Positions 1 to 46,234 of a stretch of DNA of 64,000 bases are shown here, one piece after another. The DNA comes from Amphiscolops sp. MND2022 (taxonomy: Eukaryota), in the NCBI GenBank assembly GCA_964187785.1, contig OZ076413.1, positions 30,752,001-30,816,000 on the forward strand, in the 5' to 3' direction. Positions within the stretch are counted from its first letter, which is position 1, and the number at the start of each line of letters is the position of its first letter. A model generated the notes under the pieces. The model was not told where the DNA came from, ran no database searches, and saw nothing but the letters and a program-made list of their open reading frames with translations. Both the position numbers and the translations under genes were made by a program.

Positions 1-506
1 TATAAGTCTGAGATAAGACAAGTGCAATGTAAGCAAAGAGAAAGTGGAGAATAAGAGTCGAGGGGGAGAAGGGGGAGAGTAAGTGTAAGAGAAGTAGAGG
101 AATTGATAAGTTGAGAGAGAGAGAGAGAGCTGTAAGTTGAGCTCAGCCGTCCGGCGGGAAAGAATGAATCTCCAGCCTGTGCGCGCGGTATAAAAACAGT
201 TCAGCACAGCTGTTGAAGTGCCTGGCCGGCATGTGTTGCATGCTACCAATGGTAGCTCAGCTTTAAAATTCAAATATCCGCGGTAAGAAATAGAAATTTT
301 CACTAGTGCAATTCCTTTCCCGTAGTATTCCATTACTTATTACTCCACTTCGAGGCCGCCGCGTTATGGCCGCCGCCATATTTACTTCAACTTTCCACTC
401 TCCACACAACGTTAGTTCAAGTTTTATGTTTCTCTTTGCACGTGTTATTTTTTATAATAGAAAGCGCCTTTTGGTGATTCGTTAGAGCGTTAGTCATAGC
501 GCGACA
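1..506 (-). repeat. 3' LTR (partial, truncated by window edge)
   Basis: Matches 16305-16810 with no indel; one substitution seen by eye (444 g vs 16748 a). Begins TGTCGCG on the minus strand. Confidence 0.95.
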
Positions 507-518
507 GCTCACCCCCCT
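507..518 (-). promoter_or_regulatory. Polypurine tract (PPT)
   Basis: Minus strand AGGGGGGTGAGC directly abuts the TG start of the 3' LTR. Confidence 0.75.
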
Positions 519-620
519 GGCAGGGTGAAAAAGCAACAACTTTACTAGAGAAATTTGGGGTCAGGTCAAGAAAGAGGTATTAGGTGAAAGAGCATGAGGG
601 AAGGGGGACATGTTTTAGCA

Positions 621-1523
621 CTAGGGTTTAGAAAAAAGGGGTCTGTCAAATTGAATTTGGATTATGACGGAGTCATTGTTTAGGAAGGCTTCTCTAAAGT
701 TTACCAGGAGTTTTGTGTGCGCGATGAAGTCTTCTCTCATCAGTCCTGGGAGTGTGTAGTCGTTCTTGTGCGGGTCTTCATACTCTTCTGTTTTGGAGGG
801 ATAGGGAAAGGAGATGGACCATTTGTTGTTCTTGTCTTTTTGGTCTATGATTGAGACGATCAATTGTTGCTCGAAAGGCCACGTCCGTGGGAGAGTGAAG
901 TCGCTGGGGTGTAGATCACAAGAAATTGAGGAATGGGTTCCGCGGAAGATGTTGGCGCCATAAGGGAATAGTCTGAGGGATATTTTGCAGCCGGTTAGGT
1001 GGGTAGTGTAGATAGGGCTAGTGAAGCTATTTTTGATGTTGTTCAACGCATCATTCGGGGAGGTCTTTGCTTTTCTGTATAGTGTGGAAAAAGCGGGTAT
1101 GTGCCAAAGGATGGGTTCACCACTTCTTGCGTCTAATACGTTGGTTTTGTTGAGTAGGGCGCCTTGAAACTTGATTGTCGCTTGTAGATTGGATATTGTG
1201 AGTTCCAAGTGATTACATTTAGTCCGCGTTTCTTCTGCCAAGTTTTGGAGTTGTTTCATTTCACTAGCAAACTTTGTTCTAGGCTGTTTTATGTCGGTTA
1301 TGGGAAACGATTTCCTTAGGATCGGGGTTACCTTTTTACTTTGTGGGCTAGTTGAGACTTCCAGTTCAGCGATCCATTTGTTCAATCTTTTGATTCCCTC
1401 GAGTGTCTCGAGGTCATCTTTATTCTCTGTCCTGGATAGAGGTGGCCAGTCGTTAGCTTTGGGGAAGGAAGGAGTGCTTTTTGGGATGAAGGGGATAGCG
1501 TCTGGGTTTAGCCTCCGATTCAT
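621..1523 (-). CDS. TRAF-like accessory protein: N-terminal PAM2-like motif, coiled coil, TRAF-C/MATH domain; no RING or zinc fingers
   Basis: aa ~135-293 (GEPILWHIP...FTSPIYT...GCKISLRLFPYG...RGTHSS...WPFEQQLIVSIIDQ...FLNNDSVIIQIQFD) follows the TRAF-C pattern (G.LIWKI...S.PFYT...GYK...R.Y.NG.G.G.GTHLS...WPF.QKV...L.DQ...Y..DD..FI...VD). Heptad-like stretch at aa ~86-128. LNPDAIPFIP at aa 5-14. Confidence 0.9.
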   Translation of the reverse strand: MNRRLNPDAIPFIPKSTPSFPKANDWPPLSRTENKDDLETLEGIKRLNKWIAELEVSTSPQSKKVTPILRKSFPITDIKQPRTKFASEMKQLQNLAEETRTKCNHLELTISNLQATIKFQGALLNKTNVLDARSGEPILWHIPAFSTLYRKAKTSPNDALNNIKNSFTSPIYTTHLTGCKISLRLFPYGANIFRGTHSSISCDLHPSDFTLPRTWPFEQQLIVSIIDQKDKNNKWSISFPYPSKTEEYEDPHKNDYTLPGLMREDFIAHTKLLVNFREAFLNNDSVIIQIQFDRPLFSKP

Positions 1524-2122
1524 TGTGCTGAGATGGCTCTTAGGGGGACCGTTAGTCTTTGTCCCTTTAGGGCTGGGTTCTCTATGGTGTACTCTTGTCT
1601 CTTGTTATCCCAGAAAACGATTTTCCAAGTTGAGAATTGTGGGAGGAGAGTGTATTTCAACTCTGTGTTGAATCTGGGCTTCTTAACGTGTCTTGCTCGT
1701 TTAGTGAAGTACTCCCGCTTGTGTTGTTTCTTCAGTGGCGTGTCATCTGTTATTTTGTCATTCCATTGTTGTTGGTGTTTCCTGGGTAGTGCCCGTCTTA
1801 TGTCTTTTCCGCCGAAGCGGGGTGGATGTTGGGGCGATCGAGGTGGATGTTGAGTTGATGGGATAGGCGCTACCTCTTCTGTAAATGACAGCGGAAAGGG
1901 GAGTTGTAGTGATGTCGTTGGAGAGGGTGTTGTTGTTAGGGCGCTTGGAATCGGAGAAGGAACTGTTGAGTCTGGGGGATCTAGGAGAAAGGTAATAGTT
2001 GTGGGAGAAGCAGGTGACAGCAGGTCAGAAGGTGATAAGGGTTCTATCTGCAAGTCGTCTTCTAAGATAGAGTTAGGGATGTCGTCGTCCAGGTTTGGGA
2101 GGTCGAATAAGGGTTCTAAATT
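1520..2122 (-). CDS. Accessory ORF without AUG: acidic/Pro-Ser-Thr-rich N-terminus, basic NLS-like patch, short beta-rich C-terminus
   Basis: The frame is open from 2122 (NLEPLFDLPNLDDDIPNSILEDDLQIEPL...) to TGA at 1520-1522 and contains no Met. It is preceded by GTTTACGTTTAG, which is acceptor-like. Its stop overlaps the TRAF ORF start (ATGA). Confidence 0.6.
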   Translation of the reverse strand, partial: NLEPLFDLPNLDDDIPNSILEDDLQIEPLSPSDLLSPASPTTITFLLDPPDSTVPSPIPSALTTTPSPTTSLQLPFPLSFTEEVAPIPSTQHPPRSPQHPPRFGGKDIRRALPRKHQQQWNDKITDDTPLKKQHKREYFTKRARHVKKPRFNTELKYTLLPQFSTWKIVFWDNKRQEYTIENPALKGQRLTVPLRAISAQ

Positions 2123-2153
2123 CTAAACGTAAACTACGAAATGAGATAATAAT

Positions 2154-4303
2154 TCATATTGGAGCAACAAAGCTCTGTACCGAGGGATATAGTGATTCCT
2201 CTTTTTGTTTTAGGATTTGGAGTTCTACTCCTTTTTCTTCGTCTTCTGTTTTTACCCTTTTGTCTTCAATGCTATCCTCGAAAGGGGCCCGCGGGGTAAA
2301 TACGGAAGTTAAAACAGAGGTAAAGAAAAGGTTGTACGAAGCACTGAGCAAGGTTTTAGTGAAGCTCAGTGTGTTACCTGTAAGGTGACGAAGTTCGAAG
2401 TAGCGGAAGACTAGTACCGTGATATCTATGACGAACTTGATAAAAAGGAAAGCGCCAAAGTACGCTCCGCAGAGTTCTAGTACATAAGATATACTTCCGA
2501 ATGTTTCGAGGAACTGATTTTTAAAGTAGTCGGGTGAAATCATTCCGTCGACATAGAAATCTGTACGAGGTGCGTAATACGCGAAGGATTCTGGTCCGCT
2601 GTGGGCCATGGAGGGTATGATGAGCTCTCTTGAGAACTTCTGGAGGGCATTACGTGATGCGGCGCTGATGAGGATGTTGTCCCAAAACTCGGAGAGTTGC
2701 TTGGGAGTGTACATTCCCGCGTCCTGTGATCCTGGGAAAGATCTGGTAATCATTGGCTGGATGTCTTTGGGTCCGAAGATAGCAGGCCGGTCCCGATGTT
2801 CGGGTGAAGGTGTAAGGGTGAACCAGGAGTCCTTGTCTTCCATGTCCAGTTGGAAGAGGTTCTTAATACGATCTGTGCAGTTTTGTACGTTCGCGTTAGG
2901 ATATGTTTGTCGGGTTATGGGGTCTACAAAGGCGACCACTCCCTTGTAGAAGATTGGTATGCGGTCGTAGCATTGGTTCATCGTGTGAAGAGGTGAGTGG
3001 GATTCCGGGCAGTGGTAGAGCCATGCGAGGCTACCATCTGTGTTCAGGAACATCGAGCGATTTCCCGTGAGCATGTATCCGGCGAGTCGTGGGTTTTCCA
3101 TGGATAACATCAGGATGGTAAGGATTTGTGTTCGTTCTTGCTCACATTGAGCTTTCAATAGCTGGATCTCTGAAGCTTCGAGTAAGCGGGTGCTCTCAAA
3201 GAAGAGATAATCTAACTTGGTTCCTTGGTGGAGTTCGTAATCCATGTTGAGATAATGTGGTGTGTTGGGGTTGGAGTCGCTGGGGCCTCTGAAGAGGTGG
3301 AGTCTGCCATTACCAGAACCATCGTTGGGTGAGTAATATTGAAGTTTGGAGGTTTCTCCCATGGAGATGCCGAGTCGTCTGCCAGAAGTCATGTCGAAGC
3401 CACCAAATTGGGTCGAAACGTAGAGGGATTCATAATTGGTAGGGTAGACATCATCGGGTTTGTTGCAGTATTTCTGTGGCCTGTTGTATATTTCGAATAG
3501 GAACTTGGTAGTGGAGTCGTTGCCGCTAACTATATAGTAGTTAGAGCCATGTTTGATCATATTCACTATTTCTTTTCTGTGGACTGCGAGCACGCAGTTA
3601 TCTGGCTCTGCCCATGTATAGGCGTACGGGTCCAATGACGTGGTTTCGCAGCCGAGTTGTTCCAGGGGGCAGGGGAGAACCATCTGGAAGGGTGTGAGGA
3701 TTTTCCCGTCTCTGGTTTTGACTGATAATTCTACGTCTTGAATATGAGATTCGAAGGTTTCGCGTTTAATCCATCCGCCTGTCTTGCACTCATTACGGGT
3801 ATCAGGGTCACGTACTCCATCCCAACTTTTTCCGTATTTGGCGTTTCTCGTCTGTACTTGTTTGACTCCTTTCTTAAATTTGAGGGGTTGTCCATGGATC
3901 ATGACTTCTTTGCCTTCGCCCATGGCCTTACAGGTTTCGGGTGACAAGGAAATATCGCTGGTGATTCCGTTGTGTAGGATTGACATACTGGAGTGGTCAT
4001 TATGACCACAATGCCATTCTTCACACTCTGGTGTTTCACACGGCACATAGTAGCGTTGATAGTGCGACGAAAGTGTTTAGTGTATAACGTCACGCTAGCA
4101 CGACTTACTTCTAAGTTTTCCGGGGCCACATTGCATTGCTCTACTTGATTCAAGGCGTAGAGCTTATTTTGTGTCATTTCGCCGCAGTCGAAATGAGTTA
4201 CTCGCAATTTTTTAGCAACGCTAGCGAGGTTTGGCGTTGAACGTTGTGAGTTCACAACGGGCGCGAAATTGGCGCATAAGAAGAGTAAGAAAAATAATTT
4301 CAT
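2154..4303 (-). CDS. env: Envelope-like type I membrane glycoprotein, probably class III fusogen-like; ~715 aa if the single frameshift near 4020-4030 is repaired
   Basis: Signal peptide MKLFFLLFLCANFAPVVNS. Cys-rich ectodomain starting HFDC...YALNQVEQC and continuing WHCG, with N-glycosylation sequons. C-terminal hydrophobic segment YVLELCGAYFGAFLFIKFVIDITVLVF. ORFs 3899-4303 and 2154-4046 overlap in different frames and join as ...CRVKHQS(EE)WHCGHND. Confidence 0.85.
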
Positions 4304-4382
4304 TGTTGAAATTCTTCAGTCTGTTTTTGAATCAACCGTGTAATCGCTCCCTGTTAAAGAATCAGTTTAAGTGTTTAGTAGA

Positions 4383-4838
4383 GACCGTAAAGAGGCAAGC
4401 CGTAATATCAAACCGGCAGCTTAGCTGGCACAACACTAAGCGGAGGTTAAAATTTTATAGTAGTAACCTCACTACTGTTAAAACGTGCCGAGGGGAACGA
4501 TAAGTATTTTATTATTTCAGGGAAATAGGTGTGTGTTCCAGAGAGGAGGATTCGTAGTAAGGCCGTAAAAAGGCAAGTCGTAATATCAAACCGACAGCTT
4601 AGTGGGCACTAGCACTAAGCGGAGGCTAAAATTTTATAGTAGTAACCTCACTACTGTTAAAAAAAAAGTGCCGAAGAGTAGGTTAATTATTGGAGCTTTA
4701 GTATATTTTATTATTGAGGATCCGTTATAAGGCCGTAAAAAGGCAAGCCGTAATATCAAACCGGCAGCTTAGTGGGCACTCGCACTAAGCGGAGGTTAAA
4801 ATTTTATAGTAGTAACCTCACTACTGTTAAAAAGTGCC
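4383..4838 (-). ncRNA. Three copies (4383-4489, 4561-4672, 4731-4838) of a ~108-nt structured, pseudoknotted cis-RNA motif upstream of env
   Basis: Conserved pairings AGUAG/CUACU with GAGGUUA/UAACCUC (H-type pseudoknot), GCUUAG(UG)/(CA)CUAAGC, GCCG/CGGC, and 5' GGCAC with loop GUGCC. Compensatory GCCG/CGGC to GUCG/CGAC change in the middle copy. Spacers between copies are unrelated. Confidence 0.7.
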
Positions 4839-4883
4839 AAAATAGGAAGTTAAAAGAGACTAACTTCAACCATTGCTGAAAGT

Positions 4884-5228
4884 TCAATTGTAGTTGTCAC
4901 GGATTGATTGTAGACTGGGAGAGGTTTTGTTTCGTCTTCTCAATTCGAGGAAGTCAATGAGCTTGTTGAGGAGGAACAGTGTTAGAGGGTGGATGTGGTC
5001 GAGATAGGCAATTTGCCTATATTCCTTTAGTGCGAGTGAGAGATCAGTAGCCTCTTGGGAGTTGGTGTCAACTGGGATGAGCCAATGTCCTGGGTTTTGC
5101 GGTCGGAGGCTATGGAGTTCGATTTGTAGTGAAGGTGCGTTTTCTTTCCAAGCGATAGAGAGAATTTCGAGAAGTGTATTTGTTTCAGGGTGGCGCCAGA
5201 GAAACTTGAGTTGAATCTTAAACATCAT
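4884..5228 (-). CDS. Small accessory ORF (114 aa), unknown function
   Basis: ATG start overlaps the upstream ORF stop (ATGATGTTTAA). Globular-looking composition; shares a motif with neighbouring small ORFs. Confidence 0.7.
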   Translation of the reverse strand: MMFKIQLKFLWRHPETNTLLEILSIAWKENAPSLQIELHSLRPQNPGHWLIPVDTNSQEATDLSLALKEYRQIAYLDHIHPLTLFLLNKLIDFLELRRRNKTSPSLQSIRDNYN

Positions 5229-5613
5229 AAGTGTCGACTAGGCTGTGAAGGTATTTGATTCTAACTTCTTCTTCGAAGGGGTTGGAGGTGAGAGTGATGT
5301 CCATAAAATAAACCAAGTCGTCGAAAGCCTTGTCTTTGAGAACTGCGGGGTGTTGGAGGATGTATTGCTTGAACGAAAGGAATAAGTAGGCGTATTCCTT
5401 GGATCCGAAGTGAATAGGGAAGAGGACTAGAGCTTCTTTGTCTTCTGGTGTGAGTATACGCACTTGAATCGCAGAGGTTGTGATCTCGTAGAAGATTGAC
5501 TGTATTTCGTATTGGCCCTTGAGTTGTATGGGAGTCCAAGGAACAGGAGGTTGAAACTGTGTGTGGAAGTAGTAATTATTTCCGCGGAACACGGCGACTG
5601 CGGGAGAGGACAT
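5218..5613 (-). CDS. Small accessory ORF (131 aa), unknown function
   Basis: ATG overlaps the previous stop as TAATG at 5611-5615; shared motif with neighbours. Confidence 0.72.
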   Translation of the reverse strand: MSSPAVAVFRGNNYYFHTQFQPPVPWTPIQLKGQYEIQSIFYEITTSAIQVRILTPEDKEALVLFPIHFGSKEYAYLFLSFKQYILQHPAVLKDKAFDDLVYFMDITLTSNPFEEEVRIKYLHSLVDTYDV

Positions 5614-5834
5614 TAAATGACTGACTTGGCTCTTGTGACGACTTCAGTAGGGGTGTTGTTATATAGCAAGCTCTCCAGTAGAGGGTAGATAGGTGATGCT
5701 GGCACACAAGTGTAGGTTTCACTTTCTTCTTCTGCTATTGCGTATGCTTGTACGATAATGTTCTGCGTTGAGGGTTCCTTCTGGATATCTGTGATTTGTG
5801 AAAGACGGTTGTCGATTTTGAAGATTATGATCAT
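5613..5834 (-). CDS. Small accessory ORF (73 aa), unknown function
   Basis: First of three coupled ORFs; starts at the edge of the AT-rich 5835-6123 spacer; shared motif with neighbours. Confidence 0.62.
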   Translation of the reverse strand: MIIIFKIDNRLSQITDIQKEPSTQNIIVQAYAIAEEESETYTCVPASPIYPLLESLLYNNTPTEVVTRAKSVI

Positions 5835-6123
5835 CTGTGAGATACTTCAGTGTTCACTGTTGTTCAAACATGGCAAATCTGAGAATGTAATCATCAGTTA
5901 TTTCATTGCGTTGGAGGACAGAGGTGTTTGAAAAGTATAAACACGATCTCGTAGAAGATCGTGGTTGAGTACAGAGAAGTTTCAAAAGATATATTCTATC
6001 TATTGTAGGATTATCGTAGGCGGTTTAGGCAAATAACCATAAGATATTGTTATAAAATAAGAGATAAATATTTGTTTAAGCATGCATTACTTTAGGACAA
6101 AAAAAAGCTAAGATATCTTCAGA

Positions 6124-6768
6124 ATGAGTAACAACAACGAGTCTGACTACTACGAGGAATCATCGACCGATGAGGAAACAGTTGCGTCTGCTGCTTCGTC
6201 GTCTGCTCCCTCGTCGTCTGCTCCCTCGTCGTCTGCTCCCTCGTCGTCTGTGGGCCCTTCGTCGGCCGCTGGGCCTTCTTTGTCGTTGGCTGGGCCTTCT
6301 TTGTCGGCGGCTGGGCCGTCCTCCTCTTCTGCGCCTGTTGCTGCTGTGGCCCCCAGGCCAGTCCTGCAGGCCTCCACAGTAGTGGCTCAAGGGGTTTTAG
6401 AGAACCCCGGAGAGCAGAGTTTTCTCAGCCTCTTTAACCGGAGGGACGTGGACCGGTTAGAGAATTGGGCCTCTTTGTCCCGTTCCATGCGGGGGTCTCC
6501 CGGGTTTGCCTTATCTGGGGCGCCCATCCCAAATGCCTTTGTGAGCTTCTTGAGGGCCAACCTGGGAGCCCGTTGGGAGGGAACCCTCCTGTCCCCTCTA
6601 GGGGAATTAGTGCTGTGTTAACTGAGGGCCTATATAGATGGGTTCTGCCAGTTGACCAGCTTCGAGAGGGGGCAGTGGGTGAGGCTGTACCAGTTATGGA
6701 CCAGAGAGGAGCGGGCTTCCCAGTTGAGGCGGCTAGCGGAGAAAGGCGGTTTCCTGGAGATTGAGTAG
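6124..6768 (+). CDS. Antisense accessory ORF (acidic N-terminus, Ser/Ala/Pro repeats, helical-looking C-terminus) with an in-frame TAA at 6619-6621
   Basis: ATG 6124 to TAA 6621 gives 165 aa. The same frame stays open for 48 more codons (LRAYIDGFCQLTSFERGQWVRLYQLWTREERASQLRRLAEKGGFLEIE) to TAG 6766-6768. 15-bp (SSSAP x3) and 21-bp tandem repeats keep the frame. Confidence 0.55.
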
Positions 6769-6930
6769 GCGCAAGTCGCCTCTCATCTCCAGGAAAATTC
6801 TCTACTATTTTTATACGCTTCTGTGCTTGTGGCTTTTCGTAAGTCATGTTCGGGATTGCACAAATAATATCGATAAACGGAAGTAGAATATATTAAAGGT
6901 AATACATCGCTAATAGGTTAAATGTGCCGG

Positions 6931-7317
6931 CTAGGAGCTAGGTGAGGAGATAGTCGAGCAGCAGAATAGGTCCTTTTGAGTATTGGGTGAGGAAGGTTGT
7001 AGGTCAGGAATTAGGGTAGGCATGTAGGATAAGAGTTCTTCTAGGATAGGGTCGTGATGGTTGACTGCATGGTAGGCTAGGTGCTGATATAGTTGAGCAA
7101 ACGTTTTGGATTCTGGGTGAACATGAAGATTTGATTTTCGGGGCGTAGGTTGTTTGTGGGGGCTCGGGTCTGGGTCGTTGGAGTAGAAGCAAATTCTAAT
7201 TAGTTTGTTTGTGTAGGTCCAGTAGATTTTTGTGATTGTAACGTGTAGAACGTTTAAGGATTGGAGTTCTCGTGGAACTTGCCATGATAAATTTAGGTAA
7301 ACTTTATGACAAGGCAT
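6931..7317 (-). CDS. Small accessory ORF (128 aa) immediately after pol
   Basis: ATG lies 8 nt downstream of the pol stop; shares a motif with the 73/131/114-aa ORFs. Confidence 0.65.
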   Translation of the reverse strand: MPCHKVYLNLSWQVPRELQSLNVLHVTITKIYWTYTNKLIRICFYSNDPDPSPHKQPTPRKSNLHVHPESKTFAQLYQHLAYHAVNHHDPILEELLSYMPTLIPDLQPSSPNTQKDLFCCSTISSPSS

Positions 7318-7325
7318 GATGTAGA

Positions 7326-10300
7326 TTAGGCTTTGTAGCCTACGCGAGTTTTTTGCCGAAGGATGGACAGTGGTGCTGGTTGGTTGGGTTGTGCTCGCTG
7401 ATAGCGGGGATTTCTTTCGACGTGACTTGCAACCGCTCGCCTGAGTTCTTGTAGGGGTGTCAAAGATTTGGTCGAAGTAGCCGGTGTGGTAGTCAAGGGT
7501 TCGGGTGTTATTTGTTGCGTCAGTGTTTGGATAGGAGTAGTTGAACCAGGAGGACGGGATGTAGTAGGCTGATCCGGAGTTGTTGGTGTTCCCAACCGGT
7601 GATTTTCTGGGGAAATAATACCAGAGTCGGTGCTCTGGGGAGTTCTCACTCGTTTTTGTGCGGTGGTCTGTCTTTGTTGGTTTCGGACTGGTAAAATGCA
7701 GAGATCCCCGAGTATCTGTGGTTCTGAAACATTAAGTCGTTCTATTCTTCCTTTGACAAAATTGTTATAGAAATCCGTGTCTCCACGGTAGGGAGTTGTG
7801 TATTCTTCTATAAGAGGGGGGAGTGTTTCCTCTTTGGGAAAGTATTCTATTAAATGATTTCTATGGACTGTTCGGAGATTTTCGGGGTTTTGATCGTTTT
7901 TTATTTGGTATGTTGTGTTGGTGATTCTCTTGGTAACTGTAAATGGTCCTAATCGCAGTTGTTGAAGTTTTTGGCTTTTGGAGAGGTCTTTCCGATGGTT
8001 TTCTAACAAGACCTTTTGTCCGATGTTGAGATGGCTGCCTAGTTTAAATCTGTTTCTGTAGGCATGAGATCTAGCTGTTTGTTTTCTGCATTTTTCGTAA
8101 GTGGACGAATAGATTTTCTTGAAGGCGGTCTCTCTTTCAAGCAAGTTTTGAGATAGTTGAGGTCTTAATAGTCCATTCAGCAGTTCGTTTTTGACTTGGT
8201 TTTCGCTGTGGCAGTGAGGAGGCAGTCCGTTGCAGAACTGTGATCTGCAATTCTTGTTTTTATTACGGTATAGACCCAACTTAAGACTCATAGGTATCTG
8301 TGGTTTATTGCAGAAGACTATTTCGTATGGTGTCTTTCCAGTGGTATAGTTGACGCTTGTGTTGTGGGCAAATGCGAATTTAGCAGCTAGTTGGGCCCAG
8401 TTGTTTCCTGAGTCGTTTAAGAAGTTTCTCCAGTACCTTGCAATGTGTTGGTTTTGGGTTTCCACTTTTCCGTTAGTCCAGGGTGAGTGTGCAGTTCTTG
8501 GCCGGAGAGTGATGCCTAACTCTTTAGTCCAATTGACGAATTCAGTGTTTACGAAAGCCGTTCCTCTATCGTGTATGATAGACTGCGGTATCCCATAGTG
8601 CATAATCCATTTTTCCATAGCGTTGATTGTTGACTGTGCACCTGTGTCTCTAACTGGGTATGCCATCAAGTAGCGTGAAAATGCGTCGATGATGAGGAGG
8701 CAATGTGAATTTCCACGACTGGGAGGGTTGAGTGGTCCCTTGTGATCGATATGAACAGTTCTGAATACTTGGGTCTCGGTTTCACAGTCCTCCAGTGGGA
8801 CTTCGTTATTTCTTCTTTGTTTGGATTTGTTAGATTGGCAGCTAACGCAATCTTGTGTGAGGGCACAAATCCAGTCGTGCATCCCGGGCCAGTAGTAGAA
8901 TCTTTTAGCATTTAGGTAGGTTTTCTCGGCTCCCATATGGCCTCCGAGGTCGTTGTAGTGTCCTAATCGGAAGCAGGCGAGAAATAAGGAGAGTGGTAAG
9001 CATATTCGAAGATTTTCTTCTTCCGTCTTATCTGTAGGTTCATTGTAGCACAGTAGGTTTCCGTTTTCTTCTATGGTCAATCTATCAAACTCTTGGGAAT
9101 AGCGCATGAGTCCTTTAGAGTGTTGTAATTCTGGTGATTTTGGCGTAGGCCTGTTTCCGGTTTGTATCCATCGTCGAACCACACTGAGCACCGGGTCATT
9201 GATCTGTTCTTGTAAGATTGTTGTGACGTCTAGATCCACTTCTTTTGATATTTTGTCGAGTTGACTGACGAGCTCTCGGGCTGGGGTCTTGTGTTTTTCC
9301 GTTGAATTTGTAGGTAGACTGAGGTGTTCTATTGCCTTTGCATTTTCGGGAATACCTGTGTTACGTGCGGTGAGATCTTCAGTGTTGAGCTCGTAGTTGG
9401 TCTCGTTTACTTCATGACTTTGGTTGTCTGTGCAGGCTTCATCATCTGCATCGCTATTGATGGAGCTGTAAGTATTCTGAGACGAATCGGAAGTGCTATC
9501 CCTTGTCCCGGATCTGATTTTTAGCTCTGAAAATTTTCCTAGTTCTCTTCCAGCGTCGAGACAACTCTGTGCTGACTCTATTTTCGGCAGGTTAGGTTCC
9601 TCGTAGATATTGTTAACTGTGAAGTTATTTCCATCGTTTTGCAGGTGAAGAATTTTTCGTTCATCTCCTTTTTCGTACAGGATGGGGTAGAAATCGTTTT
9701 TTGACGTTTCTTCGTTTTCTTCGTGTTTTATTTTGTAGTGTATTTGGGTTCCATGCTCGTCGAAGAAGTGAATATCGTTCGGTAGGATTTTGTGACTGAG
9801 TTGATGTTTTTTGTGTTCTTCTATCGATACGTTTCTGCTGAGTATATCAGGGAAGGCTAAATTGCTTCCTGGGGTCCAAATTATCTTGAGATTTGGGAAT
9901 TTAGAGATTATTACTTGGTACCTGAAGAAACGCGGTGAAACTTGTCCTTTTCGTCCCCAGAGATAAAGAATTGGTTTGTGGTCACAATATAAGTAAATTG
10001 GAAAGGGAGATCCAATGATATAGTGTTCGTAGGTTTGTAATGCTGAGACTATTCCACATAGTTCTCTATGTAGAGTAGACATTTTTTGTTCTTCTTTTGC
10101 GAAGACTCTGGAATTGAAAGAAATGATCCGTTTCCCTTCTGGAAATTGTTGTATGAGGATACATCCTGTCCCTACGTTGGACGAGTCGACGTGTATATGA
10201 AAGGGATATTTTGTTGAAGGTACCGCAAGAACTGTGTCTTCGCTGATTCTTTTCTTTATTTGTTGGAAGAGGTCTTCATGTTCTTGGTTCCAACAGAAAT

Positions 10301-12836
10301 TTGTATCCTTTTTTGTGAGTTCGTAAAAGGGTCGACTATCGACGTGAAGGTTCTTGATGTAGCAGCTGTAGAAACCTAAGGCTCCCAAGAAGCTTTTCAC
10401 TTCGGTTTTGGTTTTTGGTGATTTGAGATTATGTAGGTCTCTTACTCGTTTAGCTACGGGTTGTATTCCTTCTGCTGCAATCACATGTCCCAAAAACTTG
10501 ACTTTCCTCAAGAAGAAGAGTGTTTTGTCAGGTGCCGCTTTTAGTCCCGCTTTCCGTAGTAGGTTATGGTATTCTTGAATCACTGTGAACATTTCTTGTT
10601 TACTTTTCGCTTGCATCAACGTGTCGTCTATGTAGGTGATTGCTTGTTTCTTTTTAATGAGAGGTTCGAAGTGAATTGTCATCATTCGGCTAAAGAAGCT
10701 TGGTAACCCTTTAAGTCCGTAGAATCCTCTGGTGAAGGTGTATTGTTTCCCGCCTATGATGAAGCTTGTAAGTTTTTGTGTAGGCTCGTCTAATGGGACT
10801 TGGTGAAATGCACAGGAGAGATCACTTACTGAGAAGATGTTCCCGTTGATTAGTGTCATTATGGTTTGGATCGGTTCTAAGGGCCAGGAGTAGTTTGTTA
10901 GATCCGTCACTGAATTTAGGTATCTTGCGTCTATGATCAGTTTTACATAGTCGTGTTTTGGTTGTAGTATAATAGGATTTACGAATAAGGATCCCATTTC
11001 GTCGTCATCGCCCATCTCTCTGATAATATCGGCGTCTTTGAGTTGTGTGAGTAGCTTCTCTAACTTTTCTCTTAGGTGAAGTGGTACTTTGCTGGGTCTC
11101 TGTCTCTTCAGGATTGCTCCAGGTTCGAGTTTGATGTTAAATTTCTGTCTGGTTTTTCCTACGTCGAATTTGTGTTGGGAGTATACATCTCTCGCATCCA
11201 TTAGTTGGTCTATTAGGAGCACAAGTTCCTCGTCAGTAAGGTCTGAGTAGCGAAAGTCGAATTCTTTGATGTATTGCACTGCTTCTTTGTTCTGGTACTG
11301 AAGGTAATACTCGATCAGTCTTTCGTTGTCTTCTTTTTGCCTGAAGATTTTAAATTGCTCATCGCAGGGTGGTTGACAAGACTTTGCGTCACTCGTAAAG
11401 TCTGTCTCCAGCTCTCTATGTTTAAGGTGAAATTGCTCGGAAAATTGTTGTATCTCGTCTTCCAGCGCGTATTCGGGGTCTCCTCTCGTAGTCATAGCAT
11501 AGACGTCTAGTTCATTTCTTGTATAAATTCGGAGTTGTATTTCCGAGTAGGCAAAAACATCTTGAATAATTTGTGTCACATCTTGCCATTGGAAATCTTC
11601 TAGTTCTGACGCTTCTCGTAACATAGAAATGGTCTTGATACAATTCATTTTGGCGTGTGCTTTTAGAGTCTCTAGCGTTTGGACTAAGATTTGTGGGTCG
11701 ATTTTGTCTTTTGATTTAGCTTTTGTGATTAGGACGTATATGAATCGTTTTAGATTCATGTCCCAGTAAGGTATTGTATCCCCTTTGAGTGGTTTCTGTT
11801 TTGCGCAAGATTCTTTTAACAAGGGTATGTTCGTTAGGATTTCTTTCGAGAAGCCTTTGGCTGGCTTCAGATCTGCCGGGACAAAGATCATGATGGAGTC
11901 GGGTCTGCTGAGGATTGTAGTAGAATTTCCTCCTTCTATTCTGATGCAATCGTTCATATCTTGTGAAGGGATGGTGGAGTGCAACAGGAAACAGTCATTG
12001 TATTCTTCGTTTTCGTTTAGGATAGCGTAGGCGAGTTCCGTAGGGTTTCTAACTTGGTATTTTGGAATTTCTTGGTCTAATACGTCGAGCAGAGAGTATC
12101 CAATAGTTCCTTTTACTAGGGTGATTGTATGGTTTTTGTTATTTTCCATGACGATTGGCAAAGTCTTCTCAAATCTTGTACAAAGGACATTTATAAAATT
12201 TAGTCCTGTAGAGACTGCTTTTCTGTTGGGTAGGAACGTAGATCCGGGAGGAAAGGAGTTCTTGGGGTTTTCCGGTGCAAATTTGTAACATCTTGTCGTC
12301 TTTGGTTCGATATACATTGAGTGAGGAATTCGGACTGAGAGTATTTGTGATACGTAGGGGTAACATTTGTTGAGTTGTAGACTGCCATAGCAGAAAGTAT
12401 TTATAGGTCTTTTGAGTTCTATGCCAGGAAGATCAAAGTGTATTTTGTTAACTTGTTCTTGACAGAAGTTCATTCCAAGGAGGTTTTGGGTCTTCATCTC
12501 TGTTATCCAGACTGTCAGTGGGAAGTTATGTTGTCCATCGGAATCGTAGTAGAGTTTAAGGGTGATGTATCCCATCATAGGGATGATCTGCCCAGAGTAG
12601 TTCCGTGTTGTGTTGTTACTTCTGCTGAGTTCGAGGTCTTGTTGAAATTGACAGAGTTCTCTAAAGGTCCTGTAGTTAATGATTGAAGATGTTGCCCCAG
12701 TGTCTAGTAGAAATTCGATTTCTAAGCCACTATCTTTTTGTGAGTCTCCGGCAGCAAAATAATAAAGATTAAGACTAAATTTTAGTGGGGCAGTGCTGCT
12801 GTTACGGTTTTTCGGAGACCTTAATAGTTTAAAGGG
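7326..12836 (-). CDS. pol: Pol: aspartic protease, dUTPase-like spacer, TARG1-like macrodomain, RT, RNase H, integrase
   Basis: The frame is open upstream of the tracked ATG to the gag end and includes FLLDTGA (DTG at 12696-12704). RT YIDD; RNase H HVDSSNVG...DHKP; IN HHCC (H...GH...CVSC), D-D-E core (HIDHKGP, HDRGTAF, KVETQN) and LGPF. Confidence 0.96.
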   Translation of the reverse strand, partial: PFKLLRSPKNRNSSTAPLKFSLNLYYFAAGDSQKDSGLEIEFLLDTGATSSIINYRTFRELCQFQQDLELSRSNNTTRNYSGQIIPMMGYITLKLYYDSDGQHNFPLTVWITEMKTQNLLGMNFCQEQVNKIHFDLPGIELKRPINTFCYGSLQLNKCYPYVSQILSVRIPHSMYIEPKTTRCYKFAPENPKNSFPPGSTFLPNRKAVSTGLNFINVLCTRFEKTLPIVMENNKNHTITLVKGTIGYSLLDVLDQEIPKYQVRNPTELAYAILNENEEYNDCFLLHSTIPSQDMNDCIRIEGGNSTTILSRPDSIMIFVPADLKPAKGFSKEILTNIPLLKESCAKQKPLKGDTIPYWDMNLKRFIYVLITKAKSKDKIDPQILVQTLETLKAHAKMNCIKTISMLREASELEDFQWQDVTQIIQDVFAYSEIQLRIYTRNELDVYAMTTRGDPEYALEDEIQQFSEQFHLKHRELETDFTSDAKSCQPPCDEQFKIFRQKEDNERLIEYYLQYQNKEAVQYIKEFDFRYSDLTDEELVLLIDQLMDARDVYSQHKFDVGKTRQKFNIKLEPGAILKRQRPSKVPLHLREKLEKLLTQLKDADIIREMGDDDEMGSLFVNPIILQPKHDYVKLIIDARYLNSVTDLTNYSWPLEPIQTIMTLINGNIFSVSDLSCAFHQVPLDEPTQKLTSFIIGGKQYTFTRGFYGLKGLPSFFSRMMTIHFEPLIKKKQAITYIDDTLMQAKSKQEMFTVIQEYHNLLRKAGLKAAPDKTLFFLRKVKFLGHVIAAEGIQPVAKRVRDLHNLKSPKTKTEVKSFLGALGFYSCYIKNLHVDSRPFYELTKKDTNFCWNQEHEDLFQQIKKRISEDTVLAVPSTKYPFHIHVDSSNVGTGCILIQQFPEGKRIISFNSRVFAKEEQKMSTLHRELCGIVSALQTYEHYIIGSPFPIYLYCDHKPILYLWGRKGQVSPRFFRYQVIISKFPNLKIIWTPGSNLAFPDILSRNVSIEEHKKHQLSHKILPNDIHFFDEHGTQIHYKIKHEENEETSKNDFYPILYEKGDERKILHLQNDGNNFTVNNIYEEPNLPKIESAQSCLDAGRELGKFSELKIRSGTRDSTSDSSQNTYSSINSDADDEACTDNQSHEVNETNYELNTEDLTARNTGIPENAKAIEHLSLPTNSTEKHKTPARELVSQLDKISKEVDLDVTTILQEQINDPVLSVVRRWIQTGNRPTPKSPELQHSKGLMRYSQEFDRLTIEENGNLLCYNEPTDKTEEENLRICLPLSLFLACFRLGHYNDLGGHMGAEKTYLNAKRFYYWPGMHDWICALTQDCVSCQSNKSKQRRNNEVPLEDCETETQVFRTVHIDHKGPLNPPSRGNSHCLLIIDAFSRYLMAYPVRDTGAQSTINAMEKWIMHYGIPQSIIHDRGTAFVNTEFVNWTKELGITLRPRTAHSPWTNGKVETQNQHIARYWRNFLNDSGNNWAQLAAKFAFAHNTSVNYTTGKTPYEIVFCNKPQIPMSLKLGLYRNKNKNCRSQFCNGLPPHCHSENQVKNELLNGLLRPQLSQNLLERETAFKKIYSSTYEKCRKQTARSHAYRNRFKLGSHLNIGQKVLLENHRKDLSKSQKLQQLRLGPFTVTKRITNTTYQIKNDQNPENLRTVHRNHLIEYFPKEETLPPLIEEYTTPYRGDTDFYNNFVKGRIERLNVSEPQILGDLCILPVRNQQRQTTAQKRVRTPQSTDSGIISPENHRLGTPTTPDQPTTSRPPGSTTPIQTLTQQITPEPLTTTPATSTKSLTPLQELRRAVASHVERNPRYQRAQPNQPAPLSILRQKTRVGYKA
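11520..11948 (-). other. TARG1/OARD1 (Poa1p-like) macrodomain within Pol
   Basis: RFIYVLITKAKSKDKIDPQILVQTLETLKAHAKMNCIKTISMLREASELEDFQWQDVTQIIQDVFAYSEIQLRIYT aligns by eye, without gaps, to the TARG1 C-terminal half as recalled (RYIYYLITK...L..SLEAMKSH...LSMPRIGCGLDRLQW..V...IEEVF...I.I.VY). Confidence 0.8.
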
Positions 12837-14275
12837 CGAATATCGGCGACAGAGTTCACCGAGTAATCTGTTTCGAGAAACTGTACGGTGTTATGTCTTC
12901 CCATGTCGTTAGTTCTAGGGAACCTTTGTTCGTAGGTTTGAGTGGGGGTGTTTGGTCTTTCGTTTCTGTTTTGTGGTCTATTAAAGACTGAGTTATTCCT
13001 TGGTGGAAGAGGCTGTATGTTGCGGTTGAAGGAGTTAGGCTGGTCTCTGTTGAAGCTGAACGGAGATCTTGCTCTTTGGGGCCCAGGAGAAACACTTCTG
13101 GAATTGTTAGAATTGTTTAGAAAAGGTCTTCTTCCTTCTTGTGAAAATCTTTGGTTACCAGGACTGAATCTTGTATTCATAGGTCGGCGTTCTGGGTTGA
13201 AATTTCTTCTTTGTGGTCTATCATATTGGTTCCGGGCAGGGTTTGACTGCATGGCTCCAGCAAGTGCTAGTTGATGTGCCACAGCCATATGTTTTCTGAT
13301 TTCTGAATCGGGTAGTCTAGTTTGGAATCTAGAACCATGTCCAGGTCCAGTTCTTTTGTTGTAATCGTTGGTGAAAGTTATTCGTCTCTCTGGGTTGGAT
13401 TCATTTTGAACTTTCTTGATTTCTTCATCTCTCATCTTCTTTCTGCACCAGTTAGGCGTATGCCCATTTGTTCGGCAGTAGCTGCAAAACCTGGTGGCCA
13501 TTCTACGTCCTGTTGCGTTCGGATCAACAGTTTTCTCTATTGCATTAATAGTGTTGTTCGTCTGTTCTTTGATTTGTAGCTTGATTCCTTTGATGTCTTC
13601 TCGCAATTCTTGGATGAGTGGGTCTGCGTGTGATTCTCCACCGGTGAGAGAGGTAGTTACTGTGTAAGAAAGGTCTTTGTTTATTACAGCTTGAGAGAAC
13701 TGCTCCCAGGTTGCATTCGGATGATCCATTAAGTATTCGTGTGCCTTTTCCCTCAGTTTCGGGGGTCGAAGGCCTCTCAGTGAGTAGTCAATGCACCTCT
13801 GTCTTCTTTGTCTGTCTTGTGCTGCTCTTTCGGCGTCTCTATTGTTCTGTGCGACTCCGGCTAGATCATCTGGCCATCCTTTTCCGACTACTATTTTAAT
13901 TCTGTGTAGGAAGTTCTTTATTTCTTCTCCATCTCGTCTGATGACGTGTTCGGCTTCCATTCTGTGTCTAAATTTGTTTCTGCCATCTGCGAATCGCGTT
14001 ATGAACCTCTCTCTGATTTCTGCCCAAGTGTTAGCGTCTGTGATGCTGGTCTCGAACCACTCTGCTGCGGGTCCTCTTAATAGTGTAGCAAAATAGGATT
14101 TTCTTCTGAAGTTGTAGTCATCAAGTGCTGGTCCGTTGGCCGGGGTATCACCGTGAGAAAACCGGAACTTCTTTTCAATGAGCTGTATGAATTGTTCAGG
14201 ATCTTGATCTGGGTCTGTTCCTGTGAATTGGTCTCGGCCTAGGTCTGGATAAGCCAAGTAATTTTGCGCAGCCAT
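12821..14275 (-). CDS. gag: Gag (capsid-like region, CCHC zinc knuckle, Arg/Asn/Pro-rich tail)
   Basis: 484-aa ORF upstream of pol; CSYCRTNGHTPNWC = C-X2-C-X4-H-X4-C; LRGPAAEWF and LRGLRP resemble retrotransposon capsid motifs. Confidence 0.92.
   Translation of the reverse strand: MAAQNYLAYPDLGRDQFTGTDPDQDPEQFIQLIEKKFRFSHGDTPANGPALDDYNFRRKSYFATLLRGPAAEWFETSITDANTWAEIRERFITRFADGRNKFRHRMEAEHVIRRDGEEIKNFLHRIKIVVGKGWPDDLAGVAQNNRDAERAAQDRQRRQRCIDYSLRGLRPPKLREKAHEYLMDHPNATWEQFSQAVINKDLSYTVTTSLTGGESHADPLIQELREDIKGIKLQIKEQTNNTINAIEKTVDPNATGRRMATRFCSYCRTNGHTPNWCRKKMRDEEIKKVQNESNPERRITFTNDYNKRTGPGHGSRFQTRLPDSEIRKHMAVAHQLALAGAMQSNPARNQYDRPQRRNFNPERRPMNTRFSPGNQRFSQEGRRPFLNNSNNSRSVSPGPQRARSPFSFNRDQPNSFNRNIQPLPPRNNSVFNRPQNRNERPNTPTQTYEQRFPRTNDMGRHNTVQFLETDYSVNSVADIRPLNY
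12827..12836 (-). promoter_or_regulatory. -1 programmed ribosomal frameshift site (overlapping C CCU UUA and U UUA AAC)
   Basis: Minus strand CCCTTTAAAC is in the gag frame two codons before the gag TAA. The pol frame is -1 relative to gag and open through this site. Confidence 0.85.
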
Positions 14276-15290
14276 TGTGAGCTATTGAGGTTATAAAAGA
14301 TAGAAGATGAAGTAAGGAAAAATAAGCCAAAGACTCTGTGAGGTATGATACTCCTGGTTTTTGAGAGTAACTACAAAGAGCGGAAGTAAAAATTGTTTGT
14401 ACAATGATTCTAACAGTGATAATTATTAGGCAGGTCTGACAAAACATATACTCCGTAATTCGCTGCTAGTAAAAATGAAATTAGCGCATCTCAGCCCAGG
14501 ATAGGCACATTCCCAGTATTTATTACTGAAATTTCAAAATTTTTAGGGGATACTTACAAATCCCGCTTGTGTTACGATTACCGTAAAAAGGGTAGTTCGG
14601 AGTATACCAATCCTCCGAGTTAAGCTTAAAAGATTGGAGAGTACAGTCGGTCCAATAGGTCTTCAATTCGCTAGACTAGCCTTTCAATGGCTTTTGTAAA
14701 AGTAGTACTAGAACTAACCAACAGAGGGAGTCACTCTCGTCCTCAGGATTAAGTGCGCGGGGCCAAGATCACTATCATGCAAACACTCGGGTACTATCAC
14801 TAGAATACTAGGTTTCCCACTTGGAATGCTACACAGGTTCCGGGACACCCACTGGGCTCACGGCCTTCAACCAGTCTCCGAGGAGACCTAGGCGGGCTTT
14901 TACTTAATGTGTGTCCGTCTGGACTTGAGTGAACTTCCCAACTGTAAGTTTAAATTCCGTGTTAGAGGGCAGTTTCATTCTTGTTTAGGACCGAATGTAG
15001 TCTAGCATTTCCGTAAAAATAGATCAGCGCTAACCTTTTTGTGGATTGAGAGGACTAAGTTGGGTAGAGCACAGTCTCTTCCAACGGCTGTTAAGCTGGA
15101 GAGATTCTATTAGAGTATTTACTAGCAGTTCTGTAATTTATATAGACTAAAGAAGCCACATATTGGGGCAGTAGGAGAAAAAAGAAAATCAGAAGTAAGA
15201 TTAAGAGAAATAGGTAGTTAACCCTAACTTCTGAGAGTAGGGATTCGAACAGATTGCTCATTTACTTCTCTATAGTAAGAGAAAAAGGAT

Positions 15291-15308
15291 GCCTCACTGG
15301 TCGCACCA
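15291..15308 (-). promoter_or_regulatory. Primer binding site
   Basis: TGGTGCGACCAGTGAGGC starts 3 nt after the 5' LTR end, complementary to a tRNA 3' CCA end. The tRNA identity was not determined. Confidence 0.85.
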
Positions 15309-15311
15309 GTT

Positions 15312-16810
15312 TGTCGCACGCATGGATAAATTTCAGTTCTGCTATTTTACAGTTTCCTCTTTTAGAGGGGAATTCCAAATTTGTTATCCGTATTAGTCAG
15401 CCCAGCTGTTACAACATTTGGCAAAATGCTTTTCCAACAACTGTTGTTTTATTGAAGTAGAACAAGTAGAAAAGTCTCAATAACTTAATTTCTTTTTTGT
15501 AATACCGAAAAGAAAGTGCCTTGCGTGTACGTGCGAACAAAGGAACTTGCGTGAGTAAGTGCAAGGCAGGGAATGTAAATGAGCTCTCTGAACTAAAAAA
15601 AAAAACATATGTTAGCAAACTTGTTGAATTACATAAAAGAGTTGAACTTCAGACATATCAGTTTTTATTCAACTGTTTACAAGTATTCAGTCAAACTCAC
15701 CAAATTTATTTGCCAGCAACCGAAGTAATATCTTAGCTATTTCAATTTAGAGCATAAATTGATGAAGAAATTTAGCATCGAAGGAAATTCATAGTAATTT
15801 CCTTTAGTTCGAAGAAAGTTTTTTTACGAAAAATCCAGTTTTGGTGTTGTAATAACTTAGACAACACTATTTAATTTTATAGTCTCTACTCCTTTGTTTT
15901 AGGAATAGCATTAAGACTTTAGGAATAGCATCTTTTTTTTTTTTTTGAATATGGGAATGGTAAAGACAAATAAGTTAACAGGGGAAAACCGCAGAATTAA
16001 ATCAGCAGAATTATTCTAAGATAGAATTTTAACAACCGCAGAATTAAATCAGCGGAATTATTATAAGATAGAATCCGCAGAATTGAATCAGCGGAATTAT
16101 TCTAAGATAGAGTTTAGTTAGAAGGAGGGAGAGTAAAAAATCTCCTCTAAAAGAAAAAATCTAAGATATTTTCGACTCACCCAACTGGAGACCAAGTTGA
16201 ATTGAAGAGAATTTTCTAAGATAGAAAATTCTGTTGGGGAATAGAGAAAAGGAAAAGATAAGTTTTTGCTTGAGGAAAGGGAGAAAAGGAGGAAAGTTTG
16301 ACTTTATAAGTCTGAGATAAGACAAGTGCAATGTAAGCAAAGAGAAAGTGGAGAATAAGAGTCGAGGGGGAGAAGGGGGAGAGTAAGTGTAAGAGAAGTA
16401 GAGGAATTGATAAGTTGAGAGAGAGAGAGAGAGCTGTAAGTTGAGCTCAGCCGTCCGGCGGGAAAGAATGAATCTCCAGCCTGTGCGCGCGGTATAAAAA
16501 CAGTTCAGCACAGCTGTTGAAGTGCCTGGCCGGCATGTGTTGCATGCTACCAATGGTAGCTCAGCTTTAAAATTCAAATATCCGCGGTAAGAAATAGAAA
16601 TTTTCACTAGTGCAATTCCTTTCCCGTAGTATTCCATTACTTATTACTCCACTTCGAGGCCGCCGCGTTATGGCCGCCGCCATATTTACTTCAACTTTCC
16701 ACTCTCCACACAACGTTAGTTCAAGTTTTATGTTTCTCTTTGCACGTATTATTTTTTATAATAGAAAGCGCCTTTTGGTGATTCGTTAGAGCGTTAGTCA
16801 TAGCGCGACA
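15312..16810 (-). repeat. 5' LTR, 1499 bp, termini TGTCGC...GCGACA
   Basis: 6-bp terminal inverted repeat with TG...CA ends; PBS adjacent; right part is duplicated at 1-506. Confidence 0.92.
15989..16113. repeat. Three 39-bp imperfect direct repeats inside the LTR
   Basis: ccgcagaattaaatcagc(a/g)gaattatt(c/a)taagatagaat at 15989, 16036 and 16075. Confidence 0.9.
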
Positions 16811-19478: not shown

Positions 19479-20745
19479 TTTTAGGGCTGACCTGTTTGTG
19501 ATTACTTCTTCGAATAACAAAGTCTTTACGCCCGCCCTGATTGTTTCCAGGAACCACAATGACAACGTCCAGAGCACTCGTAAATTCTTGGATGACCTTG
19601 TCGGTCCAATTCAGCGTCAAAAGCACTTCTAAGTATTTTGGTTTTTAGAATAAAACAAATGCTTCCGATGGATTCTTCGTTCAAATGGACTTTGTCTTCT
19701 CTCAAATGAGTGACTTTGTAGACCCTCTTTTCTACTCCTCGAAACGACCAGTCTTCCTTTCGATTAGATAGCAGTTTGTTTACTGCACTGGTGCGTTCTC
19801 TTTGATTGTGACGAGGAGGAATTCCCAGCACAAACACTTTATCAGCTTTGCCTTTTAAAACGTTAGCAAGGTCACTAATTTTGTCCGCAACCTCTTCCGA
19901 ACTAACTTTAGAGGGTAATTTACCTTGGAAAAGATCGTTTCCTCCAACGAAAAGTACTATAATATTGAAGCGACCCACGCGTGGAATGAAATTATAAACG
20001 TCGTGAACTTTCGCACCAGGCAAGGATAAAATATTGAAGTTCGCGAAATCTAAATATTTCGCTTGTGAATCAGCAATTAAAAGATTTCTTTGGACGGATT
20101 CTTTGAATATATGATAACGCATTTGGAACTCTCAAATTTGGATTCTGTGATACCTCATGGACTCGGCGAATCCGTTTAAGAGCACCAAAATACTATCATA
20201 CTTTCTGTTAATCAAAATTACCAGTTTTTTGTCTCTATTTTCTTTGTAATATTTTGGAACTGGAAGCTTATTTTCCGTCTTTTGGCACTCAATTTTAGCC
20301 AGGAATAGGAAACATCATTTGATAATTTCAAATAATCTTTTTTCCGTATCTTTTTACCAGTATTCCGCAATAATTACAATCAAAATAAAATCCAATAATG
20401 GTAAATTTCGAAAATAATAGCACGCTCGGTCATAAGAAACCTGCTTCTGAACAATCAATCTATAACTTGGTTACTTTTCTCATACAGTTGGAACAACTTG
20501 TCCAATTTAAGAATTCTCGCTTCTCGTTTTCGAAGTTATTGATTGTTGTTCGTGTGAAACTTTACATCCGTTTAACATCTCATTAATATTCATTACAACG
20601 TCAAATTTATACAATTTTGATTAGATATATATTTGGCTCAAACATTCTGATTAAACATCGGAATTCCTTCGATTGTTGAATACTTTAAATGCTTGACCGA
20701 AAACCATAAGTATTTGATTTGGATTATGATTGTATGGCGCCAACA
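19479..20745 (-). repeat. BEL 3' LTR (1267 bp)
   Basis: Matches 27402-28668; one substitution seen (20276 c vs 28199 t). Starts TGTTGG and ends CCCTAAAA on the minus strand. Confidence 0.95.
19526..20122 (-). CDS. SGNH/GDSL hydrolase-like protein encoded in the 3' LTR
   Basis: Block I LIADS, block II PGA, block III VGGND, block V DKVH (DxxH); 198 aa, uninterrupted. Confidence 0.85.
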   Translation of the reverse strand: MRYHIFKESVQRNLLIADSQAKYLDFANFNILSLPGAKVHDVYNFIPRVGRFNIIVLFVGGNDLFQGKLPSKVSSEEVADKISDLANVLKGKADKVFVLGIPPRHNQRERTSAVNKLLSNRKEDWSFRGVEKRVYKVTHLREDKVHLNEESIGSICFILKTKILRSAFDAELDRQGHPRIYECSGRCHCGSWKQSGRA

Positions 20746-27367: not shown

Positions 27368-27380
27368 TGCTTGCGACAGT

Positions 27381-27398
27381 TCCCGGGTCGCGGCACCA
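27381..27398 (-). promoter_or_regulatory. BEL primer binding site, tRNA-His-like
   Basis: TGGTGCCGCGACCCGGGA, 3 nt after the 5' LTR; resembles the complement of the tRNA-His 3' end (TGGTGCCGTGAC...). Confidence 0.75.
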
Positions 27399-27401
27399 AA
27401 A

Positions 27402-41500: not shown

Positions 41501-41699
41501 CGAGTCAGCTAGCACCATCATTTAATTCATTGCTCGAACAACTTGAAGTTTGCTAACATATCAGGTTGGTTTGTTTCTTCTCGATTTTAAGCTATTATAA
41601 AATAAAAGTATAAGTTTTGTAGCTCAAGAAATTTGACTAAGTTCTTTTCCTCAACACCCCCACTCAGATTGTTCCGGATGTCGTAGGGAGAATCTGCAT

Positions 41700-46032: not shown

Positions 46033-46234
46033 TGCAAGTTTTTTCGAACCTACTAAGCTCAGCCGATAGTTTATTTTTTCTATCGTTGAGTAGTGCAATG
46101 CTAACCTCCCAGTCACAACCTGTCTAAACCGGAACCGGGTTAGCTACTCAACGGCTGAGATCCTACTAAGCCTTTTGAATTGGGACGTGGGATTTATTCC
46201 CCCTAGATTGATTGGACAACCTAATTGCCTTTCA

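Follow-up and report, generated by a model that had tools for sequence, protein, structure and literature searches.

The 64,000-nucleotide (nt) stretch of Amphiscolops sp. MND2022 analyzed here (the window; contig OZ076413.1 of assembly GCA_964187785.1, positions 30,752,001 to 30,816,000 of the forward strand) carries a Ty3/gypsy long terminal repeat (LTR) retrotransposon with a TARG1/OARD1-type macrodomain inside its Pol polyprotein, after the protease and before the reverse transcriptase (RT). The domain keeps the fold and the catalytic lysine of its class, and several residues of the ADP-ribose pocket are replaced. We read it as a possible pseudo-enzyme, kept for a role outside that pocket with RNA binding as first choice, and on comparison of sequences we give this reading a probability of about one half. 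The domain and the frame that encodes it are positioned as follows.

7326..12890, minus strand: Pol frame, 1854 amino acids (aa), stop-free, with protease, a ~150-aa region, macrodomain, RT, RNase H, bridge and integrase
11520..11948, minus strand: TARG1/OARD1-type macrodomain with altered ADP-ribose pocket; Pol residues 315-457, a stop-free stretch of 143 aa

Both sequence homology and fold place the domain in the TARG1/ALC1-like macrodomain class. A phmmer search against all Protein Data Bank (PDB) chains returns six matches at E ≤ 10, five of which are human TARG1/C6orf130 (E 4.5e-10 to 4.9e-10) and the sixth unrelated (E 1.1); a profile search gives E 2.5e-23. The AlphaFold2 model has a mean predicted local distance difference test score (pLDDT) of 92.3, with the proviso that its alignment included 67 TARG1-like relatives and the fold is thus partly expected. 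In a second model, built from 16 element-derived sequences, the macrodomain is the sole confidently folded part. Structural comparison to 48,161 PDB representatives ranks human TARG1 first (PDB 4J5S, 2LGR; Z 20.6, root-mean-square deviation 2.0, 141 residues aligned, ~25% identity), as does Foldseek; the window domain differs in being embedded in a gypsy Pol and in having pocket residues including Gly123 and Asp125 replaced. Second is the DarG antitoxin macrodomain (Z 18.0), which is of the same class and has the catalytic lysine, but is only 16% identical and belongs to a bacterial toxin-antitoxin context; the first MacroD-type viral (alphavirus) domains appear at Z 13.7. An earlier sequence-only reading of this DNA had placed a TARG1-type macrodomain at exactly these coordinates and would have given it up had no such fold been predicted; on both counts it is borne out.

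Pfam Macro (PF01661) does not match the window domain at E ≤ 0.1, so that routine annotation would miss it; some intact sister domains are weakly detected by the same profile. An Atlas search with the macrodomain gave leads only, all below 0.9 (0.82-0.83, Macro clusters). GC content by codon position is no different from the rest of pol and hence gives no sign of recent capture. The domain is basic, with an isoelectric point (pI) of 8.8.

TARG1 numbering was taken from the PDB alignment (chain number +6) and anchored on Lys84, Gly123 and Asp125, which are named in papers. Three sites define the state of the pocket (here and below, P numbers designate database proteins).

11721..11723, minus strand: Lys390 of Pol, equivalent of the TARG1 catalytic Lys84, kept within a retained LITK motif
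11598..11621, minus strand: phosphate-binding loop LREASELE, Pol 424-431, in which Glu429 takes the place of Gly123 and Glu431 that of Asp125
11862..11888, minus strand: derived motif IFVPADLKP, Pol 335-343, replacing TARG1 residues 32-40; identical (9/9) in P0009 although the two domains are 45% identical overall

The sequence-only reading had read the motifs correctly: LITK is retained, ASELE stands opposite GCGLD in a gap-free alignment, and AKGFS aligns to GAGIA. The intact sister domains also have KGF (SKGFA) in this last motif, the first loop, which is thus not where the telling change lies. What that reading overlooked are the substitutions His32 to Ile, Cys33 to Phe, Ser35 to Pro and Met40 to Pro. 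In the phosphate-binding loop, Pro118 is replaced by Leu, Ile120 by Glu, Gly121 by Ala, Cys122 by Ser, Gly123 by Glu and Asp125 by Glu, while Asp37, Gly43, Lys84, Leu124 and Trp129 are kept. Of the features expected of an active hydrolase, Lys84 is present, the Gly121/Gly123 loop is absent (Ala, Glu), and so is His-Cys-x-Ser (Ile-Phe-Val-Pro). Among 166 other domains, position 123 is Gly in 148 of the 162 with a residue there and Glu in one; His32 is His in 119/127, Ile120 is Glu in 0/164, and Asp125 is Asp in 149/160 and Glu in 2/160. The G123E mutant of human TARG1 has lost both ADP-ribose binding and hydrolase activity despite retaining Lys84; its stability exceeds that of the wild-type protein, and its RNA binding, which uses a surface away from the pocket, is like that of the wild type (PMC5928194).

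Most sister families retain intact TARG1 motifs, with canonical examples in P0004, P0157, P0161, P0162 and P0163; the window lineage does not. The altered state is common to the window, P0002, P0003 and, in part, P0009, which has Asp at position 123 where the window has Glu. The motifs are separately eroded in P0160 and P0169. Many short database records show single odd residues typical of decayed copies, and only full-length, multi-member representatives were weighed (P0001 with 36 members, P0002 with 108 and P0160 with 168).

Presence and absence of the domain, together with two trees, show a single capture at the protease-RT site. An RT-RNase H search gave 89 proteins: P0002 and the window's own protein, 28 close relatives (P0157-P0184) and a further 59 that are distant, at 26-32% identity. 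The close Pols are 44-81% identical over the aligned RT/RNase H part, with two at 41-44%. Seven of the 28 carry the macrodomain between protease and RT, so that the survey of gypsy Pols proposed in the sequence-only reading does find the same insertion; 11 span the interval without the domain, and 10 are truncated or unclear. Just one of the 59 distant Pols has a macrodomain (P0194), and there it follows RNase H. The protease motif lies 692 aa from the YxDD motif in the window; the distance is 691 aa in P0157 and 523-525 aa in the macrodomain-less P0165 and P0166, making the protease-to-RT distance ~168 aa shorter in relatives that lack the domain.

11406..11954, minus strand: segment missing from the macrodomain-less relatives, Pol ~313-495; approximate, with boundaries drawn by eye from printed sequences

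The RT-RNase H tree spans 448 columns and 32 sequences, with 21 of the 28 close relatives and nine distant Pols alongside the window and P0002. The window, P0002 and the seven macrodomain-bearing Pols form one clade (FastTree support 0.906) that is nested among macrodomain-less relatives and also includes P0158, which is truncated before the site. In the macrodomain tree of 141 domains, each at least 115 aa long, 21 of the 22 labeled protease-RT domains fall into one 29-tip clade (0.992), within which a long stem leads to a sub-clade (0.999) of the window, P0002, P0003 and P0009. The element clade as a whole is isolated: RT-RNase H identity falls from at least 41% to at most 32%, with nothing between.

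Taken together, these observations are consistent with the following history. An ancestor of the macrodomain-bearing clade took up a TARG1-type ADP-ribose hydrolase, inserted in frame after the protease and before RT, as the distribution of the domain and the trees show. Made within Gag-Pol, the domain would enter the particle along with RT and integrase. Such packaging, which the sequence-only reading had proposed, gains support as the ordinary route of a Gag-Pol part, because a −1 slippery site lies in the gag/pol overlap and the biology of gypsy elements in this respect is established.

12827..12836, minus strand: two overlapping slippery heptamers in −1 phase within the gag/pol overlap, with a long stem predicted downstream

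The overlap is 70 nt, with pol in the −1 frame, and the stem after the slippery site has a predicted energy of −17.7 kcal/mol, compared to −10.9 ± 2.9 for shuffles. Judging from the intact motifs of the sisters, the original job of the domain was probably to strip ADP-ribose off proteins or nucleic acid of the element in the particle. The window lineage later rebuilt the pocket, acquiring Glu at the Gly123 position and losing His-Cys-x-Ser, and the TARG1 mutants suggest that ADP-ribose binding and hydrolysis most likely stopped at that stage. As both the fold and the new motif have been kept, the domain is most likely a pseudo-enzyme acting through its outer surface. As its role in assembly or reverse transcription we favor binding to element RNA or to a partner protein, because human TARG1 binds RNA outside its pocket.

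The altered domain looks constrained, as gauged by protein identity rather than the ratio of nonsynonymous to synonymous substitutions. Between the window and P0002, 128/143 macrodomain residues are identical, versus 90/130 in the bridge between RNase H and integrase (90% vs 69% for this spacer; Fisher p 3.6e-5), and the constraint is less than that on the enzymes.

Several points weigh against a pseudo-enzyme with a surface role. RT and RNase H, at 414/431 identical residues, are conserved above the macrodomain (p 0.0055), and the region that follows the protease (Pol 151-300) is 91% identical, so that the macrodomain is no more conserved than its neighbor. Selection merely for staying folded would also fit. 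P0003, at 85% throughout, has the look of a decayed copy and contributes little. The P0009 domain is neutral (pI 6.9), which weakens the RNA-binding idea. All four altered members keep Lys84 and an acid at position 125. SCO6735, a TARG1-class enzyme lacking the dyad, is still active (PMC9411070), and motif loss is therefore no proof of inactivity. As for the phylogeny, P0169 falls outside the protease-RT clade of the macrodomain tree, and both trees are FastTree trees on short alignments, drawn without a formal clade test.

The strongest competitor, which we still rate as rather unlikely, is a relic whose function is lost and which persists as a harmless, folded, in-frame spacer. The long branch of the window lineage fits such a fate, with 36-38% identity to intact sisters that are themselves 66-81% identical to one another (P0157, P0159, P0161, P0163), as do the eroded motifs of P0160 and P0169 and the full-length Pols of relatives that manage without the domain. 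Against it are conservation well above that of the bridge and the derived motif shared with P0009; moreover, neither the window domain nor that of P0002 has suffered a deletion or other indel relative to the intact sisters.

There is a small chance that the domain is an enzyme of changed specificity, in which the lysine and an acid would still serve as a dyad for Schiff-base chemistry, with damaged or abasic nucleic acid, for instance, as substrate in place of ADP-ribose. The four altered members all combine a retained Lys84 with the Asp125-to-Glu change, Asp37 and Trp129 are for the most part preserved, and the TARG1 dyad has been compared to that of the glycosylase OGG1 (PMC8501950). Two kept residues are nevertheless weak evidence at a background identity of 36-45%, and an acidic side chain at 123, which is Glu in the window and Asp in P0009, would be expected to repel the phosphates of a nucleic acid in the pocket as well.

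The sequence-only reading had suggested an ADP-ribose eraser or binder. Its eraser suits the sisters with intact motifs (P0157, P0161, P0162, P0163 and P0004) but not the window copy, for which both roles are poorly supported given that the Glu at the Gly123 position corresponds to a mutation that kills both in TARG1. A TARG1-like eraser still active in the particle is accordingly improbable here. The intact fold, the retention of Lys84 and Gly43, the intact sister motifs and the tolerance of dyad loss within the class, as in SCO6735, speak for it; they are set against the changes at positions 32, 33, 35, 40, 118, 120, 121 and 125 in addition to the Glu, which by itself inactivates TARG1. Least probable of all is a reader of ADP-ribose, devoid of catalysis, by which the integration complex would be targeted or shielded. 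Macrodomains without activity do turn up repeatedly among the proteins of hosts and viruses (PMC10221186), but here the binding loop is changed and the nucleophile spared, the reverse of what a reader needs.

Capture of TARG1-type domains into gypsy Pols has likely recurred, with at least two captures suggested by the sequences. Searched against 1.84 billion representatives, a five-sequence profile matches 2,784 proteins at E ≤ 0.001, and seven of the best 150 of these, the set analyzed, combine retroelement Pfam domains with a macrodomain at another site. It lies after RNase H or before integrase in P0039, P0091, P0128, P0135 and P0143, after integrase and chromodomain in P0148, and in an apparently deleted Gag-Pol in P0146. 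Three Pols with the domain between RNase H and integrase that include an RT, and P0194, belong to a distant RT lineage, and their macrodomains scatter outside the protease-RT clade. The deep nodes of the macrodomain tree are weak. The Pols with the domain at other sites (P0039, P0091, P0128, P0135, P0143, P0194, P0148) thus resemble the window element in having the same class fused into Pol, and differ in its position, in their distant RT lineage and in their mostly intact motifs. A broader and speculative proposal, to which we give little credence, is that repeated captures by gypsy elements counter a host ADP-ribosylation defense directed at retroelement proteins or complementary DNA. The domain would have been remodeled more than once in the protease-RT clade, and in the window lineage it would be a new module, its pocket closed by its own acid and Lys/Glu kept, that binds or processes element nucleic acid in the particle.

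Other fusions were seen among the same matches. In P0148, one reading frame holds integrase, chromodomain, TARG1-type macrodomain and a weak match to a rhabdovirus glycoprotein. P0088, P0095 and related records join a DNA ligase III-like protein to a TARG1-type macrodomain, which in P0088 sits after the ligase core and next to a BRCT domain, flanked by the two, and P0112 and P0133 fuse NADAR with a macrodomain.

Macrodomain capture by retroviruses and loss of activity in viral macrodomains have already been published. Some teleost epsilon-like endogenous retroviruses carry macrodomain reading frames (PMC4977317, citing Basta et al. 2009). They too are reverse-transcribing elements with a captured macrodomain, but they are Retroviridae with additional reading frames, whereas the window element is Ty3/gypsy and has its domain inside Pol. 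Alphavirus and coronavirus macrodomains have repeatedly lost activity (PMC10221186); like the window domain they keep the fold, and unlike it they belong to RNA viruses. The terms 'TARG1' and 'transpos' are absent from that paper. The window element has its LTR-gag-pol-env-LTR organization and a captured viral fusion protein in common with other Ty3/gypsy elements that carry env, which PMC13524379 counts as errantiviruses in a wide sense; it additionally has a TRAF-like frame. 'Macro' and 'ADP' are absent from the main text of PMC13524379, and in the four of ten places shown from its supplement 'macro' occurs only in species names. Our literature search, from which subscription papers and Repbase reports were largely out of reach, found no description of a macrodomain between protease and RT in a gypsy Pol. 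It also found no passage using the term 'J' for the Ty3 spacer between protease and RT, which would be a parallel. Database annotations of retroelement proteins as OARD1-like probably exist.

These results point to ADP-ribosylation as contested ground between LTR retrotransposons and their animal hosts, a role studied mostly for RNA viruses and phages. A natural experiment is offered by closely related elements, of which some lack the domain, some have it in intact TARG1-type form and some bear in it the substitution by which biochemists disable TARG1. Once isolated, such domains can show whether retroelements erase ADP-ribose and what a pocket-less TARG1 fold does, within the limits that retroviral macrodomain capture is already on record and that the window copy may be a relic.

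The element itself is a single LTR element occupying window positions 1-16810 on the minus strand. It has the LTRs, the gag gene and the Pol order (protease, RT, RNase H, integrase) of Ty3/gypsy retrotransposons (Metaviridae), and an env-like gene between pol and the 3' LTR makes it an env-carrying, errantivirus-like gypsy element.

16305..16810, minus strand: 5' LTR, the part matching the other copy; TG start at 16810; 506 nt with one mismatch
1..506, minus strand: first part of the 3' LTR, which follows a purine tract and extends beyond the window edge
12821..14281, minus strand: Gag frame of 486 aa, matching Retrotrans_gag at E 1.2e-4, which falls short of the curated cut-off
2154..4315, minus strand: gene for an env-like fusion glycoprotein, lying in two frames, of which 2154-4076 matches PF24664 (E 2.9e-23)
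621..1604, minus strand: accessory frame with a TRAF-like MATH domain; MATH_2 E 1.1e-11, TRAF5 E 2e-7

The single mismatch between the LTR copies over 506 nt suggests a young insertion. Within Pol, Pfam identifies protease (55-144), RT (RVT_1, 680-804), RNase H (867-998) and integrase (1305-1470), with no hit over 315-457; the protease DTG lies at 12710-12693 and the RT YIDD at 10634-10623, both on the minus strand. Ty3 Gag-Pol is the top PDB match of Pol (E 2.4e-56), and the nearest named relatives of the element are only ~30% identical in RT. The ~150 aa between protease and macrodomain (Pol 151-300; window 11990-12440, minus strand) are conserved and also present in macrodomain-less relatives; this region has no Pfam match, a model pLDDT below 50 and only unnamed eukaryotic clusters in an Atlas search. 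A conjectured dUTPase-like identity was dropped in view of the Pfam, model and Atlas results. The env-like frames 3899-4315 and 2154-4076 overlap at 3899-4076, reflecting either a true break or a sequence error, and the env frame gave no match in a PDB sequence search. No ADP-ribosyltransferase domain was found in the element frames scanned with Pfam.

Directly before the 3' LTR, the frame at 621-1604 (minus strand) combines a coiled-coil-like stretch with a TRAF-type MATH domain and would represent a second captured gene, of host-signaling type. The pol-env interval (4376-4838 and 4884-7731, minus strand) holds a ~170-nt repeat in three copies and several short unannotated frames. A candidate primer-binding site with a TGG start lies at ~15308-15290 (minus strand).

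Two further retroelements are found in the window. A BEL/Pao element spans 19479-28668 with 1267-nt LTRs that are 99.9% identical, each containing a 201-aa frame that weakly resembles GDSL lipases (E 0.0013, below the cut-off). A Copia-type element at 41092-46813 has 566-nt LTRs that are 99.1% identical.

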